Shown here in pieces: positions 341 through 5,176 of a stretch of DNA of 5,176 nt. Origin of the DNA: a virus; UHGV virus genome UHGV-0438775; one strand, given 5' to 3'. Numbering within the stretch: position 1 is the first letter of the stretch; the number at the start of each line of letters is the position of its first letter. A program made the position numbers and the translations under genes. Under the pieces are notes generated by a model. It made no database searches, was not told where the DNA came from, and was given only the letters and a program-made list of their open reading frames with translations.

Positions 341-1279
341 ATGCAGTGTGTTAATCAAATACAAGTATTGAACCCAAAGACGGGTAAATTTATAAAAGTC
401 CCTTGCGGTACTTGTTACGCTTGTCAAAGCAACAAACGGTCATCTTGGATGTTTCGTAATACAGTTGAACTACAATATTCACAGAGTGCGTTCTTTTGTA
501 CCCTCACGTACAATGATACTGCGCTGATGGGTCTTCCGTATCACGGTACATCTAATTTGCGAATGCCCTTGAAATATCATTATCAACGCTGGTTGAAACG
601 TCTTCGCAAGGCGTTACAGCCTGCCAAGGTTCGGTATTTCTTATGCCACGAATATGGTGACGAATCGTTCCGCCCTCATTATCATGCTTTGCTATATCTA
701 GATACTGATATATCTCTTACAGATATGCGTTGTCTTATATCTGATACTTGGAGGTATGGTAATATAACCTGCGATTTTGTCTCTCCTGCTCGTATACATT
801 ATCTGACTAAGTACGTGACTAAACAGTTTCGTAACGTCAAAAGCTCTGGACGGTCTGTAGATTATATATTTAACCATACTTGGGATAATAGAGATTTACA
901 GCATCGCTATATAGTTGAGTACTACCTTAAGAAGTTTTCTTTTGTTGTAGCTAGTCAAGGCTTAGGTTGTCAGCTCCTGCGTGAGCCTGCTTTTATACGT
1001 TGGTTTTGGGATCACCTCATAGTTGGTGAATCCTATCCGAATTATGTTATTGGAGGACGCTCGTTTGCTCTACCTCGTATATACCTGCGTAAGTTGGTAC
1101 CCGAGTTGTGGAGAGATGAGATTTCCCCCGATATATCGCCCGAGGCTTATTCAGCCCGATTATCTGATCTTGCGTCTGACGCTAATCTCACCGTAAAACA
1201 GTATATAGAAAATGCGCGCTATATACAAGACAGAAAGTCTCAAATCATCCGCGCTAATAACAAAAAATCCCCTTTGTAA
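341..1279 (+). CDS. VP4: Microviridae VP4 replication initiator (rolling-circle Rep, HUH endonuclease superfamily)
   Basis: The 312-aa ORF begins at the first ATG after an in-frame TAA (338-340). An N-terminal Cys cluster PCGTCYAC (aa 21-28) is typical of gokushovirus VP4. RCR motif I is FCTLTY (nt 494-511). Motif II is the HUH triad RPHYHALLY (nt 671-697). Motif III is YLTKYVTK (nt 800-823), with the catalytic Tyr pair YxxKY. The gene sits upstream of the structural genes, as in Gokushovirinae. Confidence 0.9.
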   Translation: MQCVNQIQVLNPKTGKFIKVPCGTCYACQSNKRSSWMFRNTVELQYSQSAFFCTLTYNDTALMGLPYHGTSNLRMPLKYHYQRWLKRLRKALQPAKVRYFLCHEYGDESFRPHYHALLYLDTDISLTDMRCLISDTWRYGNITCDFVSPARIHYLTKYVTKQFRNVKSSGRSVDYIFNHTWDNRDLQHRYIVEYYLKKFSFVVASQGLGCQLLREPAFIRWFWDHLIVGESYPNYVIGGRSFALPRIYLRKLVPELWRDEISPDISPEAYSARLSDLASDANLTVKQYIENARYIQDRKSQIIRANNKKSPL

Positions 1280-1281
1280 CT

Positions 1282-1410
1282 ATGAGTTTTATCAAACCGA
1301 AACTAGGATTCTTCGCCAAGTTGCGTAAGTTCCGAATCCCTATCATCTTGCTACTTGTAGCTATTGGAGTGCTTTGCATCTCCTTTGGCTGGTCTGTAAT
1401 CTTAATCTAA
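1282..1410 (+). CDS. Small single-pass membrane protein, 42 aa (basic N-terminus plus C-terminal TM helix); candidate lysis or membrane accessory protein
   Basis: This ORF is not in the supplied track because it is below the length cutoff. ATG 1282-1284 lies 2 nt after the Rep stop, and the TAA at 1408-1410 lies 6 nt before the next ATG. The translation is MSFIKPKLGFFAKLRKFRIPIILLLVAIGVLCISFGWSVILI. It has a basic amphipathic N-terminal segment followed by about 22 hydrophobic residues. It exactly fills the Rep-ORF132 gap on the coding strand of an otherwise gapless genome. Its start context AACTATG is identical to that of VP1. Confidence 0.4.
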   Translation: MSFIKPKLGFFAKLRKFRIPIILLLVAIGVLCISFGWSVILI

Positions 1411-1416
1411 TCTAAT

Positions 1417-1815
1417 ATGGAAACTTGTAAGTATAGAAATAACCCGTTTAATATACGGTATAATGCTTCCAATAATTGGAAAGGTCAAACAGAACCTAAG
1501 AACGGATTCTGTCAGTTCTCAGAATTGAAGTACGGTGTTCGTGCTGCTTTCCTGCTTGTCTTTAACTATCGTAATTTGCACGATGCGACTACTCCACGTG
1601 ATATAATACGATATTGGGCGCCAAAGGAAGACGGTAATGATACGTCTGCTTATATAAACTTTGTCGGACAGCTCATTAACGAAGATGAGCCAATAGATAC
1701 TACTTTGGAGTATCTGATTCTGCTTTATAGTATGTGGAAAGTAGAACAAGGATGGGTTCCCAGCCTTTGGGAGTTTGCTACACTTTTGAATGCGTCACTA
1801 ATAGAAGATCTATAA
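1417..1815 (+). CDS. Hypothetical protein, 132 aa, acidic, in the VP5 position between Rep and VP1 (function unknown)
   Basis: A clean ORF on the coding strand with tight spacing on both sides (6 nt upstream, 3 nt before the VP1 ATG). It has about 17 acidic and 12 basic residues, so it is not a basic DNA-binding protein of the J/VP8 type. It contains W/G/aromatic-rich segments (NPFNIRYNASNNWKG, GVRAAFLLVFNY) suggestive of a folded domain. It ends with a TAA and is in the same frame as VP1, separated from it only by TAA-ACT. Confidence 0.6.
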   Translation: METCKYRNNPFNIRYNASNNWKGQTEPKNGFCQFSELKYGVRAAFLLVFNYRNLHDATTPRDIIRYWAPKEDGNDTSAYINFVGQLINEDEPIDTTLEYLILLYSMWKVEQGWVPSLWEFATLLNASLIEDL

Positions 1816-1818
1816 ACT

Positions 1819-3720
1819 ATGCCAAATCTAACTAAGTATTCGCTTGACCACGAGGTTCGTTCAAGCTTTGAGATGGGTCAATTGATACCCTTTCTCTGCC
1901 AGGAAGTAGTTCCAGGTGATAAATACCGTGTGCAGTCTAGTACACTTGTGCGCCTACAGCCTATGTTATCGCCACTGATGCACCGCCTTGATTATTATCA
2001 GCGGTATTATTATGTGCCTTATAGGTTGCTTATACCTCACTATGAGCAATTACTTACCGATCCTGATAGTAAGTATGTAGTGCCATCTATGGATAAGTAT
2101 CTTCAGTTTAAGGCGAAGAAGTTTAAGGATTTGTTCGCTGAAAAACCACTGCTAGAATATTTTGGTCTTGCTACATCTAATGGCGAAGCCGATCCTACTA
2201 ATGTTCTTAAGGATCTTAACGCTACTCCCCTACTCGCTTATTACCTCATATATAATCACTATTATATGAGATCTGATCTAGACAAGCGATATGTTGACCA
2301 GCTTCGCCCAGAGAATTTTGAATCTGCTGAACTGCGCAAGTATATAGGCGATGTAATGAATGTCAATGAAGGACTTGACTATTTTACCAGCGCTAAGACC
2401 TCTACTCAGTATGGTAATATGGTGCAACTTGATATGAACGGTGATAATACTATTACTGTACCCGAGATGCGTCTTGCTGAGCGTCTGCAATCGTTTAGAG
2501 AGCGGTTACTGCGTGTTGGTGGTAAGTATGTGAATTATATTAAGGAGTTCTTCGGAGTTGAACCTTTGGACGCTAGAGTTCAAATTCCTAAGTATCTCGG
2601 TGGTGATTCATATGTCCTTAACGTCTCTGATGTTGACCAGACAGCTCCCTCAGATCTTGGTTCGGTTGGTGAGAGTTACGGTAAATCTGTATCGGTTAAT
2701 CGCACGGGTCAGATTCAGTACGATGTTTATGAGCATGGCTTAATTATTGGTCTTCACTTTGTGCGTCCTCGTCCGTCAAATATTGGTGGTTGCCCTAAGT
2801 TGTTTACCCGCCGTAATTACTTTGATTTCTTCAATCCTCATTTTTCGGCTCTTGGTTATCAAGAGATAGAGGGTCGTGAGTTGGACGTTACTCGCCCTAA
2901 AGATGAAGCGTTTGGATATGTTCCTAGATATGATGATTATAGATATGGTAATGATGTTGTTAGCGGTGATTTCCGTAGGTCTCTTAATTTCTGGCATTTG
3001 TCGCGAGATATATCCAAGGAGAGATTATCAGTTCCTTTCGTGACTTGCCGTCCAGATCCTCGTATATTTAGTTATGAGGGTGAGAACGGTAGAGTTGAGT
3101 TATATTTCTTCTCAGCTGAAGCGGATCGTTTTTTGAAGAACGGTGGATCAAAACGTATTGTTTTAGAAGGTTTTCTTTGGATGCCCGTAAATTCTGTATC
3201 TGTCGGTTCTAAGGTTAAACTTGCGTCTTATATTCATACAAATATAGGTGATGCTTCTAAGGCTTATTTTGTTGATACAGTTGAGATTAAAAGTTTATTG
3301 CCTAGAGAATCTACCGCTATTTTACCTGTGATTGATATTAATCGGTCTGAGACTAAATTTGAGTATGCTCATGAACCCGTAGAATTGACTACTGTTGATA
3401 AGGTTTTTTCTATAGAGATAGGAGATGATGAATTTGTTTCTTCCGATGTGCTTGTAGCAACTTGTGGTGATAAGGTTGGTACATTTGTAATTTGTGATGT
3501 TAGACCTAAGGTAAAGGTACATCCTGGAGAATCTGCCGATGATTTTCAACAGATGTTGCAAGAGATTGATCAGTTGCGTGTTGTAGATGGTTGTGTTGCT
3601 GGCTTTGCTAGTTATCATAAATCTGGGCACCTAGAGAACAATCACGTGTTGTCAGTTACTTATAATAATGTTGACGTACTTCGTCCGCTGGCTCGTTATG
3701 ATGGTAATGTACTTAGATAG
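1819..3720 (+). CDS. VP1: Microviridae VP1 major capsid protein (F-like jelly-roll)
   Basis: The 633-aa ORF is the largest in the window. Its N-terminus, MPNLTKYSLDHEVRSSFEMGQLIPFLCQEVVPGDKY, matches the hallmark gokushovirus VP1 start (basic-Asn-x-Phe ... G-x-L-x-P ... VLPGD). Its length is in the VP1 range. It is followed 8 nt later by VP2. Confidence 0.92.
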   Translation: MPNLTKYSLDHEVRSSFEMGQLIPFLCQEVVPGDKYRVQSSTLVRLQPMLSPLMHRLDYYQRYYYVPYRLLIPHYEQLLTDPDSKYVVPSMDKYLQFKAKKFKDLFAEKPLLEYFGLATSNGEADPTNVLKDLNATPLLAYYLIYNHYYMRSDLDKRYVDQLRPENFESAELRKYIGDVMNVNEGLDYFTSAKTSTQYGNMVQLDMNGDNTITVPEMRLAERLQSFRERLLRVGGKYVNYIKEFFGVEPLDARVQIPKYLGGDSYVLNVSDVDQTAPSDLGSVGESYGKSVSVNRTGQIQYDVYEHGLIIGLHFVRPRPSNIGGCPKLFTRRNYFDFFNPHFSALGYQEIEGRELDVTRPKDEAFGYVPRYDDYRYGNDVVSGDFRRSLNFWHLSRDISKERLSVPFVTCRPDPRIFSYEGENGRVELYFFSAEADRFLKNGGSKRIVLEGFLWMPVNSVSVGSKVKLASYIHTNIGDASKAYFVDTVEIKSLLPRESTAILPVIDINRSETKFEYAHEPVELTTVDKVFSIEIGDDEFVSSDVLVATCGDKVGTFVICDVRPKVKVHPGESADDFQQMLQEIDQLRVVDGCVAGFASYHKSGHLENNHVLSVTYNNVDVLRPLARYDGNVLR

Positions 3721-3728
3721 TTATAGCT

Positions 3729-4763
3729 ATGGATCCCGTAACAATTGCAGGTCTTGCAGGTGCAGGCGCTAGCCTCTTCGGTGGTCTCGTTAATAATGCT
3801 TGGGCAGATGCCCGTAGTGATAAACAATGGCATCGCACTTTGTACATGCAGGACAAAATGAATGCTTATAATGCGCCCGTTGCTCAGATGGAGCGACTTG
3901 CACAAGCTGGATTAAATCCTAATCTTGTGTACGGTAATGGCGGTAGCGTTATACAGTCCGCTGGCGGTAATGCTCCGAATCCTCCTAATACTGCTCCTAT
4001 TGATACGCAGGGAGTGTTACAGATGGTGCAGACTGTTGTAAACGGTATGCTTGAAAAGGATAAGATTCAGGCTGAAAAGGAGATTTCAGAAGCTAAGAAT
4101 ACCACGACTAAAGAGGTTACTCAGATGCAGAATACGACTTCGGAGCGTAATGTTGATGTTACTACTCAGTCTAATGAAAAGGTTGCTACTGAACGTAATG
4201 AGACTGAAAAGGAGATTAACAAAGATCGGATTCAGTCTAACGAAAAGATTGCTTCTGAGAATCGTGCTGAGAATGCTCGTCAGTTTGATTTGTCGTTTGC
4301 TCATCAAGTTTCTGTTGATAATGCTCGTATCGCAATTGATCGGAGCTTAGCTAATTCTACTATTGCTCTGCATTCTTCTCAGATTCGGTTGAACAATTTG
4401 TCTGCTAATCTTCAAGAAGCTATACAGCCGTATTTGGTTGATAAATCTAAGTATGAGGCATTGTCTTTGGCTTTTTCGTATGGTAATGATAGGCTTAATC
4501 AGTTTTTATCTTTACCACAGTATATTGGAGAAGGTGAATTAGGTGCTGTTTTTGATGAGGCTGGTTTGCCTCGTCCTGCTGGTTATCAGCTTAAGATGAT
4601 AGCAGATTTTCATAATCAACAGTTTGAGCTATGGAAGAAAGTTGGTGAAGCAGATTATGAGCGTGCTGATGCTGCTGCTTGGTATGCTGGTTGGAATGCT
4701 TTCTTTGGCGCTGCTTCTGGTCCGTTTAAGATGGGTATTACAGCTGCTTCAATTATTAAATGA
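3729..4763 (+). CDS. VP2: Microviridae VP2 minor capsid / DNA pilot protein
   Basis: This 344-aa ORF lies directly after VP1. It has a Gly/Ala-rich N-terminus (IAGLAGAGASLFGG) and the conserved pilot-protein block NAYNAPVAQMERLAQAGLNPNLVYG (NSP..Q..R.K.AGLNP.L.YG type). The central region is a low-complexity E/K/N/T-rich predicted coiled-coil with an internal duplication. The C-terminus is Ala/Gly/Trp-rich. Confidence 0.85.
   Translation: MDPVTIAGLAGAGASLFGGLVNNAWADARSDKQWHRTLYMQDKMNAYNAPVAQMERLAQAGLNPNLVYGNGGSVIQSAGGNAPNPPNTAPIDTQGVLQMVQTVVNGMLEKDKIQAEKEISEAKNTTTKEVTQMQNTTSERNVDVTTQSNEKVATERNETEKEINKDRIQSNEKIASENRAENARQFDLSFAHQVSVDNARIAIDRSLANSTIALHSSQIRLNNLSANLQEAIQPYLVDKSKYEALSLAFSYGNDRLNQFLSLPQYIGEGELGAVFDEAGLPRPAGYQLKMIADFHNQQFELWKKVGEADYERADAAAWYAGWNAFFGAASGPFKMGITAASIIK
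4069..4281 (+). repeat. Internal imperfect direct duplication within the VP2 coiled-coil region
   Basis: ctgaaaaggagatt occurs exactly at 4070-4083 and at 4202-4215, 132 nt (44 codons) apart. cagtctaatgaaaaggttgctactgaacgtaatgag (4157-4192) is repeated imperfectly as cagtctaacgaaaagattgcttctgagaatcgtgctgag (4231-4269). At the protein level, AEKEIS...QSNEKVATERNE is followed by TEKEIN...QSNEKIASENRAEN. Confidence 0.55.
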
Positions 4764-4801
4764 TTTGTTTTATCTTTGTCGCGTAACTAATTTGTATAGC
4801 T

Positions 4802-4939
4802 ATGAATTTAATGCATTTGTTGACTTACGTCGTTATGGTTGCTATGTTCGTTGGTGCTATATGGGTTATTGCGACATTGACCCTTAGTATAATTCGAAAG
4901 ATACGTAACTTCAATAATCATGGAAAAACGAAAATATAA
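4802..4939 (+). CDS. Small single-pass membrane protein, 45 aa (N-terminal TM helix plus basic C-terminal tail); candidate lysis protein (amurin-like)
   Basis: This ORF is not in the supplied track. ATG is at 4802-4804 and TAA at 4937-4939. The translation is MNLMHLLTYVVMVAMFVGAIWVIATLTLSIIRKIRNFNNHGKTKI. It has about 24 hydrophobic residues and then an R/K-rich tail, the same layout as phiX174 E (N-terminal TMD, basic C-terminus). It fills the VP2-VP3 gap and overlaps the VP3 start by 20 nt. Its start context TATAGCTATG is a 10-mer identical to that of VP2 (3722-3731). Confidence 0.4.
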   Translation: MNLMHLLTYVVMVAMFVGAIWVIATLTLSIIRKIRNFNNHGKTKI

Positions 4940-5176
4940 GTATGTGGCTAGAGAGCCACAGAGTACAGTATCTGATACTCTACCTAATCAAACAGTAGAT
5001 TTGTCTATACTCGTCAAACAGTTAATGGACGGTCAAGCCCTTAATGTTGGGTTGTCTTTGTCTTCGGATTCTTCCGATACTTTGGACACTCCCGATATAT
5101 CTAAGTTTGATATGCGTCATATGACTGTGGCTGATGTGGATAATTTGCTTGCTAAGGTCTCGCCGGTGAAAATTGA
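4920..5176 (+). CDS. VP3: Probable VP3 internal scaffolding protein, 5'-partial (runs off the window end)
   Basis: The frame-0 ORF opens after a TAA at 4890-4892 and its first ATG is at 4920. There is no stop through 5176. The translation is MEKRKYKYVAREPQSTVSDTLPNQTVDLSILVKQLMDGQALNVGLSLSSDSSDTLDTPDISKFDMRHMTVADVDNLLAKVSPVKI.... It is acidic and Ser/Asp-rich, as scaffold proteins are. The call rests mainly on VP1-VP2-VP3 synteny in Gokushovirinae. Confidence 0.5.
   Translation, partial: MEKRKYKYVAREPQSTVSDTLPNQTVDLSILVKQLMDGQALNVGLSLSSDSSDTLDTPDISKFDMRHMTVADVDNLLAKVSPVKI

Follow-up and report, generated by a model that had tools for sequence, protein, structure and literature searches.

The lysis protein E of phage phiX174 inhibits MraY and needs the host protein SlyD, and the proline in its transmembrane domain (TMD), Pro21, is conserved and functionally essential; LysM inhibits MurJ. 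Lysis by microviruses outside the phiX174 group is experimentally unexplained, though these phages are abundant in human-associated microbiomes. Among microviruses, the lysis mechanism is known only for phiX174, and in some non-Bullavirinae microviruses genes encoding M15 peptidases (and amidases) are the putative lysis genes, where the M15 peptidase genes lie between VP4 and VP1, at times beside a small open reading frame (ORF) of unknown kind (PMC3394797, PMC9239249). In M4Lys, the catalytic domain alone causes no lysis and the fused C-terminal TMD is required; the predicted orientation of this TMD is N-out/C-in, and its C-terminal end carries positive charge (PMC7143992). Here, we describe tm45, an ORF encoding 45 residues at the VP2/VP3 junction of UHGV virus genome UHGV-0438775, a stretch of 5176 nucleotides (nt) that is referred to below as the window. 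An earlier interpretation made from the letters of this DNA (the sequence-only reading) had proposed this ORF as a single-gene lysis protein resembling the amurin E. The analysis indicates that tm45 is a real gene under purifying selection, and that its product may be a holin-like inner-membrane component of a multi-gene lysis system, acting as the partner of a soluble lysin; we give this assignment a probability of roughly 0.4.

Conservation and selection of tm45

The translation of tm45 (4802-4939, + strand) is MNLMHLLTYVVMVAMFVGAIWVIATLTLSIIRKIRNFNNHGKTKI. VP2 ends at 4763 and the next ATG is at 4920, and tm45 fills this gap of 156 nt; 118 of its 138 nt are intergenic, and the remaining 20 nt are shared with the VP3-like gene. 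The coordinates, the translation and the 20-nt overlap given in the sequence-only reading were all reproduced, as was its placement of the ORF on the coding strand in the VP2/VP3 gap (4764-4919). That reading had also called the gene unannotated, which holds for four of five GenBank relatives; these genomes, named 'Microviridae sp.' or 'Microvirus sp.', come from human samples and share 80-86% DNA identity with the window. In the fifth, OP549878, the junction ORF is annotated as a 'hypothetical protein'.

The conservation of the ORF was examined in 24 loci with the VP3-like motif, among them chromosomal prophages, free genomes and contigs of IMG/VR. In 24/24 loci, an uninterrupted ORF from ATG to stop was found whose end coincides with the VP3-like start or lies just within it, and the small transmembrane ORF at the VP2/VP3 junction, whose presence in relatives the sequence-only reading had left to be checked, is thus a constant feature of them. 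As shown in Table 1, the ORFs form five sequence types, A to E, which share about 20-35% identity with one another, and types B-E are 18-38% identical to the window protein; the VP3-like protein beside tm45 is 52-95% identical across the loci. The types differ by in-frame length changes, and the ORF is kept in all five. A profile search of 5.8 billion proteins returned 16 members of the tm45 family, with lengths of 41-66 residues, none of them meaningfully named.

The ratio of nonsynonymous to synonymous polymorphism (pN/pS) was determined within types A and B and was limited to the 117 nt free of overlap with the next gene. In the tm45 frame it was 0.14-0.57, against values mostly of 0.5-3.3 for the two alternative frames. 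The variable sites of tm45 at codon positions 1, 2 and 3 numbered 15, 9 and 27, respectively (chi-square about 9.9, 2 degrees of freedom, p about 0.007). The conserved ...NHGKEKL end of tm45 is attributed to the overlapping MEKRSY start of the VP3-like gene, which is itself conserved.

When the gap was shuffled with its dinucleotides preserved, 6.5% of the shuffles contained an ATG ORF of 40 residues or more and 0.02% an equally hydrophobic one. This null is lenient, given the hydrophobic alternative-frame ORFs in the real T-rich genome, where the T content is 33% genome-wide and 39% in the VP2/VP3 gap. Among the overlapping alternative-frame ORFs on the + strand, 3/16 are as hydrophobic as tm45, and therefore hydrophobicity alone proves nothing; tm45 is considered to be more than a chance ORF because it is conserved.

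It is very improbable that tm45 is non-functional, either as a by-product of the T-rich composition or as a leader whose translation passes ribosomes on to the VP3-like gene. The frequent hydrophobicity of alternative-frame ORFs in this genome would fit a by-product, the 20-nt overlap would permit translational coupling, and in two loci, L002 and L005, the VP3 frame continues upstream as an open and hydrophobic stretch. However, purifying selection on the amino acids is seen in the tm45 frame only, the ORF survives in five divergent types whose length changes stay in frame, the helix keeps its length and the tail its charge, and in L026, which carries type E, the ORF exists without the overlap. 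The folding of the RNA in 4764-4960 is unremarkable (z = -1.8), a further point against a non-functional ORF. A structured RNA or a promoter in 4764-4960 was rejected on the basis of this value and of sigma-70-like sites at chance level, in a scan that does not model Bacteroidetes promoters. A tm45/VP3-like fusion or frameshift product was also rejected, as an open VP3 frame upstream occurs in L002 and L005 alone and there is no overlap in L026.

The sequence-only reading had drawn support from a 10-nt start context common to VP2 and tm45. The duplication is exact, TATAGCTATG being present twice in the window, once each at the starts of VP2 and tm45. However, this 10-mer is missing at the VP2 and tm45 starts of most relatives and is specific to the lineage of the window; because it is not conserved there, the shared context carries no evidential weight and was dropped.

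A 7-bp hairpin, TGTGGCT-AGAG-AGCCACA, is located at 4943-4960, 4 nt past the tm45 stop and within the start of the VP3-like gene. Its GTGGC/GCCAC stem is invariant among the relatives aligned and may merely reflect the conserved VAREPQ coding.

Membrane anatomy of tm45

The hydrophobic stretch of tm45 runs from about residue 6 to 31, and its best 19-residue window is the helix core given in Table 1. The Hessa dG of the TMD, -1.96 kcal/mol in the window protein, ranges from -2.2 to -4.8 kcal/mol in the other types. In the window protein, no lysine or arginine (K/R) precedes the TMD and five follow it, in the tail RKIRNFNNHGKTKI; all five types have one TMD, preceded by 0-1 K/R and followed by 4-8. 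The AlphaFold2 model, based on 16 family members, is a single helix over residues 3-43 with a mean predicted local distance difference test (pLDDT) score of 85.6, exceeding 90 over residues 11-30. The N-terminal transmembrane helix and R/K-rich tail described in the sequence-only reading are thus in keeping with the predictions from the Hessa scale and AlphaFold2 and with the 0 versus 5 K/R on the two sides. In the predicted topology, the short N-terminus would be outside and the basic tail cytoplasmic.

In L026, which has no gene overlap at this site, the tail is still basic, KQLKKQFRKRKK. Because this type E tail is highly basic without the overlap, we consider the basic tail to be a selected feature in its own right. 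Pfam-A and PHROG scans of the window protein and of the four other types gave no significant family, with sub-threshold matches to unrelated membrane anchors.

The Enc34-type lysin and tm42

The sequence-only reading had stated that gokushovirus-like microviruses have no recognised lysis gene. This does not apply to the window, in which ORF 1417-1815 encodes an Enc34-type hydrolase homologue with a second transmembrane miniprotein, tm42, encoded just upstream. The 132-residue product matches phrog_873 'endolysin' at 2.5e-23 and PDB 7Q47, the Enc34 endolysin's catalytic domain, with E values of 1.9e-6 for the single sequence and 2.5e-8 for the profile. Its AlphaFold2 model has a pLDDT of 80.7, and in a Foldseek search with this model the sole significant PDB match was again 7Q47 (E 1.4e-5, probability 1.00, TM-score 0.63-0.68). 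The ORF is thereby established, by sequence and by predicted fold, as a homologue of the Enc34 endolysin catalytic domain.

Residues W67 and Y79 of the lysin are aligned with Trp79 and Tyr95 of Enc34 (numbering from PMC8943055). A nearly invariant V-E-Q-G motif, containing E110, is located in the penultimate helix, and E110 is likely the counterpart of the catalytic Glu131 (R-H-E-N-G), the HMMER alignments stopping before the motif. The lysin family has 7497 cluster representatives at E <= 0.001. The lysin has no signal peptide, TMD or hydrophobic segment (KD19max 1.01) and ends at residue 132. Its best database relatives are mostly stand-alone proteins of 115-140 residues, and in many further homologues a signal or anchor segment is present at the N-terminus. 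Considering these N-terminal anchors and the fused TMD of M4Lys, the Enc34-type enzyme is usually paired with a membrane helix; the lysin of the window has none of its own and would need help to cross the membrane. The lysin ORF is unannotated or called hypothetical in four of the five GenBank relatives, and tm42 and the lysin likewise lack annotation in most of them.

The stop of tm42 is separated from the ATG of the lysin by 6 nt. Of the first 20 residues of the protein, six or seven are K/R, its TMD extends as far as the C-terminus, and its topology is predicted to be N-in/C-out. Its sequence, with the motifs K.GFF..LR.FR.P and FGW, is far more conserved than that of tm45, and its family consists of 15 proteins, all within this clade. 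It is present in all clade members but L026, where Rep and the lysin overlap.

In L026, an alternative-frame ORF at 7155-7268 inside the lysin gene, MKLKLLGKLSQLGRRLKKIILAIILTLSLILFFLMTL, has a basic N-terminus and a C-terminal TMD like tm42; it could be an overprinted replacement of tm42 or a chance product of the T-rich sequence. In many lysin homologues elsewhere, a fused N-terminal anchor of tm42-like design is found (e.g. P0118). A tm42-lysin read-through fusion was also considered. In the window, the two starts, at 1282 and 1417, are separated by 135 nt and share a frame, but the start-to-start distance in relatives is 133, 135, 136 or 141 nt, and the fusion was rejected as a mechanism because the in-frame arrangement is not conserved. 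The arrangement may hint at an evolutionary origin.

Proposed role of tm45 in lysis

The anatomy of tm45 is holin-like, as the protein is small, has one TMD and a charged C-terminal tail that is predicted to be cytoplasmic, and retains this architecture despite sequence divergence. The lysin is present in every tm45-bearing genome, and tm45 is the only small transmembrane ORF found in all lysin-bearing genomes of the clade, including L026, which is without tm42. In the two nearest outgroups without the lysin, L019 and L020, there is no transmembrane ORF at the VP2/VP3 junction; in L020, VP2 and the VP3-like gene abut.

The junction of L019 (PV594030, the nearest outgroup) contains a small basic hydrophilic ORF at 4955-5041, MSKVKSSRRFLGL... 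(translated by eye), which is reminiscent of J/VP8-type DNA-binding peptides.

In the proposed mechanism, tm45 would be a late gene expressed along with those of the structural proteins VP2 and VP3. Its product would build up in the inner membrane and finally permeabilise or depolarise it, and this lesion would let the signal-less 132-residue Enc34-type muramidase reach the cell wall. The tail-anchored 42-residue protein encoded by tm42 would probably modulate or assist the access of the lysin. We infer the topology of tm45, its time of expression, the membrane lesion and the partnership with the lysin from the features described above.

Several observations weigh against a holin-like function. 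The tm45 gene is located about 3 kb downstream of the end of the lysin gene, with MCP (major capsid protein) and VP2 between them, and the classic holin slot directly upstream of the lysin, which is usual for holin genes though not universal, is held by tm42. The scores of tm45 against curated holin models were 15.1 bits for NCBIfam holin_2 (cut-off 50) and 12.4 for Pfam Hol_Tox (cut-off 23.3); these weak matches, far below the cut-offs, were rejected as composition noise. In four other microviruses with a lysin domain, three of the four have only weakly hydrophobic small ORFs. Since virion or ejection proteins likewise contain members of the lysin domain family, which is labelled 'P5-like structural protein' in other microviruses, the lysin could serve entry and not exit. 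The co-variation of tm45 with the C-terminal part of VP2 could reflect a pilot-related function or simple linkage. In addition, queries with MCP, VP2, the VP3-like protein and the lysin against viral, metagenome and genome contigs returned the same small clade only, and therefore the co-occurrence of tm45 and the lysin is assessed over few independent lineages.

Small membrane ORFs were also observed in other genomes. The lysin-domain microvirus MG945638, in which the lysin domain is wrongly labelled 'similar to VP3', has a 31-residue transmembrane ORF (MDKILNFLFKL...) right after VP2. More distant microviruses have hydrophobic intergenic ORFs of 29-38 residues beside MCP, VP2 or the VP3-like gene, in L021 (1667-1771), L022 (3464-3580), L035 (4804-4899) and L036 (1742-1831); the ORF of MG945638 and that of Parabacteroides phage YZ-2015b, MLEFFIVAFFSFLFICLLPLIILVIFLRNLFKKK, are examples. 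Small membrane ORFs that escape annotation may be widespread in these phages.

The position of tm42 raises the alternative that tm42 is the actual holin and tm45 an accessory, such as an antiholin or timing regulator, a second holin subunit or an outer-membrane factor. The short distance from tm42 to the lysin ATG and the much better conservation of tm42 fit this alternative, and the opposite predicted topologies, with both basic segments cytoplasmic, would suit a hetero-oligomer. However, L026 has the lysin and a tm45-type ORF but no tm42 gene, only the putative alternative-frame ORF in its lysin gene, and tm42 is without the charged C-terminal cytoplasmic tail that is typical of holins and that tm45 has. 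We consider this division of roles unlikely.

The single-gene mechanism proposed in the sequence-only reading would require the TMD of tm45 to block a peptidoglycan precursor enzyme or flippase in a Porphyromonas-type host, the lysin then being an entry or accessory protein. The size of tm45 is typical of known single-gene lysis proteins, its gross layout of an N-terminal TMD and a basic C-terminal region is as in E, and some relatives of the lysin domain are virion proteins. In L021 and L022, where no lysin was seen, the small hydrophobic ORFs would fit a general single-gene strategy. However, tm45 has no sequence similarity to E or to any other family, and the TMD proline is not conserved, being absent from types A and E and present in some type B proteins and in types C and D. 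The TMD is also hypervariable, with 18-38% identity between types, which is hard to square with a conserved binding face on an essential enzyme. Moreover, a protein antibiotic is not needed in a genome that carries a stand-alone soluble lysin and a second transmembrane miniprotein. An amurin is thus quite unlikely. From the sequence-only reading, a membrane miniprotein with a plausible role in lysis and the gross domain layout of E can be kept; the amurin is no longer the simplest explanation beside the lysin and tm42, and kinship with E is not upheld, as tm45 has no family match, is not overprinted and has no conserved TMD proline.

Hypervariable block of VP2 and tm45

The region 4074-4919, which comprises VP2 from about residue 116 together with tm45, forms a hypervariable block with sharp boundaries. 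In close relatives, the N-terminal third of VP2 and the VP3-like protein are 75-96% identical, and the middle and C-terminal thirds of VP2 and tm45 are 20-60% identical. For L001, for example, the identity is 96% in the N-terminal third of VP2, 58% in the middle third, 34% in the C-terminal third, 34% in tm45 and 94% in the VP3-like protein. The combinations of tm42 variants and tm45 types are mosaic, which indicates recombination.

This block bears on the alternative that tm45 is a membrane protein linked to the pilot protein, which would act, for example, in type-specific superinfection exclusion, blocking DNA delivery by incoming phages with the cognate VP2, or as a membrane chaperone or assembly factor of VP2. 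Small membrane proteins from prophages are a common form of exclusion. The tm45 gene directly follows VP2 in the same hypervariable block, the flanks of which (VP2 N-terminus and VP3-like protein) are 84-96% identical, and the phages are temperate, being integrated in Bacteroidales chromosomes, including that of a Porphyromonas metagenome-assembled genome (MAG). However, the co-variation over about 300 bp may be mere linkage, and L006 breaks the pattern, with an identity of 37% in the C-terminal third of VP2 and of 78% in tm45. No match was found among the PADLOC defence models, and no sign of an independent sigma-70-type promoter was found in the scan described above, which does not cover Bacteroidetes promoters. 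The site among late structural genes also suits expression in the lytic cycle. A pilot-linked function is therefore regarded as rather unlikely, and the holin-like function of tm45 is retained as the preferred explanation.

Genome, clade and hosts

The window is a complete circular microvirus genome with every gene on the + strand, and its features are listed in Table 1. No significant Pfam or PHROG match was found for the VP3-like protein, whose conservation within the clade is 83-95%.

Table 1. Features of the 5176-nt window and sequence types of tm45.
Feature	Position	Strand	Basis or remark
Rep	341-1279	+	PF23343, phrog_942
tm42, 42-residue ORF	1282-1410	+	identified in this analysis
132-residue Enc34-type (PHA02564) peptidoglycan hydrolase homologue, candidate endolysin	1417-1815	+	sequence and fold matches
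Major capsid protein (MCP)	1819-3720	+	Phage_F
VP2 DNA pilot protein	3729-4763	+	PHROG 'pilot protein for DNA ejection' 1e-15
tm45, 45-residue bitopic membrane miniprotein	4802-4939, stop codon 4937-4939	+	ORF, conservation
tm45 predicted transmembrane helix core	4829-4885 (residues 10-28)	+	Hessa dG -1.96 kcal/mol
tm45 basic C-terminal tail, predicted cytoplasmic	4895-4936	+	RKIRNFNNHGKTKI, 5 K/R
Overlap of tm45 end and VP3-like start	4920-4939	+	20 nt, different frames
VP3-like acidic protein, 99 residues, putative internal scaffold	4920-5176, across origin to about 43	+	
tm45 type A	window		MNLMHLLTYVV...
tm45 type B			MDKIFVSVLYG...
tm45 type C			MNIFINYVLYP...
tm45 type D	L023		MIGDIFFSILS...
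tm45 type E	L026		MIVTILFNVAA...KQLKKQFRKRKK

The clade is isolated, its next MCP relatives being 46%, 40% and about 35% identical, and the label 'gokushovirus-like' used in the sequence-only reading is for this reason only loosely apt; an isolated clade of temperate Bacteroidales microviruses describes it better. Integrated prophages carry tm45 family members and are flanked by Bacteroidales genes (such as Fimbrillin_C, pyrD/pyrK and uvrA), and the sole match among the GTDB species genomes is an uncultured Porphyromonas MAG. The flanking genes and this match indicate that the phages are temperate and that their hosts are Gram-negative, Porphyromonas-like Bacteroidales of the gut and oral cavity.

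A 28-nt element, TTTTGGACTAAACTTATATATCATTCTA, is located at 309-336, just upstream of the Rep ATG, and flanks the integrated copies at both ends in L010, L011, L029 and L031; judging from these repeats, it is likely the core of the attachment site and resembles dif in size. No integrase is encoded in the genome, which suggests integration via Xer-type recombination of the host. Several prophages adjoin pyrD. The non-coding region 41-232 contains nested G+C-rich inverted repeats (41-63/134-156, 64-73/112-121, 167-176/191-200 and 205-214/223-232), which may be origin, packaging or terminator hairpins.

Comparison with known systems

The window contains a compact candidate lysis set within 5.2 kb, consisting of a soluble Enc34-type hydrolase and two orphan membrane miniproteins, and the integrated copies in Porphyromonas-like bacteria could be induced. 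Should tm45 prove to be a holin, it would rank with the smallest known ones, and multi-gene lysis would occur even in single-stranded DNA (ssDNA) phages as small as these. If it acts alone, it would indicate a new antibacterial target in Bacteroidales, and if it is an amurin, it would be the first outside the phiX174 group of microviruses and the first directed at Bacteroidota.

The enzyme of the window is an Enc34-type lysozyme-like domain, whereas the microviruses of PMC3394797 and PMC9239249 have an M15 peptidase; these two papers contain no relevant mention of 'transmembrane' or 'hydrophobic' and describe no conserved membrane miniproteins. In full-text searches of a paper library, no description of conserved membrane miniproteins or of an Enc34-type lysin in microviruses was found, which is not proof of novelty.

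Like tm45, phiX174 E is a small microvirus protein in which an N-terminal transmembrane helix is followed by a basic region, with a predicted N-out/C-in orientation, and is encoded on the coding strand among late genes. However, homology between the two is undetectable, and the proteins differ in length (45 versus 91 residues). The tm45 gene has its own intergenic slot, whereas the E gene is overprinted in a scaffold gene, and tm45 has no conserved TMD proline, unlike E. Furthermore, the genome with tm45 encodes a peptidoglycan hydrolase homologue and the phiX174 genome does not.

The Enc34 and M4Lys enzymes (PMC8943055, PMC7143992) share their catalytic-domain family with the 132-residue lysin. 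The TMD of M4Lys (PMC7143992) and tm45 have the same predicted N-out/C-in topology and the same charge pattern, a likeness of predicted arrangement. The Enc34 and M4Lys enzymes carry TMD and catalytic domain in one polypeptide, whereas in the window the lysin stands alone and the gene for the helix is 3 kb away.

The holins encoded by phages with double-stranded DNA (dsDNA), such as lambda S, pinholin S21-68 and T4 T, resemble tm45 in being small, with at least one TMD and a charged cytoplasmic C-terminal tail (predicted for tm45), in combining extreme sequence diversity with a fixed architecture, and in the presence of a soluble endolysin in the genome. Unlike them, tm45 is encoded by a 5.2-kb ssDNA phage, matches holin models only below threshold, has a single TMD in 45 residues with a predicted N-out orientation, and has its gene apart from that of the lysin. 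Taken with these likenesses and differences, it is plausible that tm45 is a member of an orphan family among the small membrane proteins of phage lysis.

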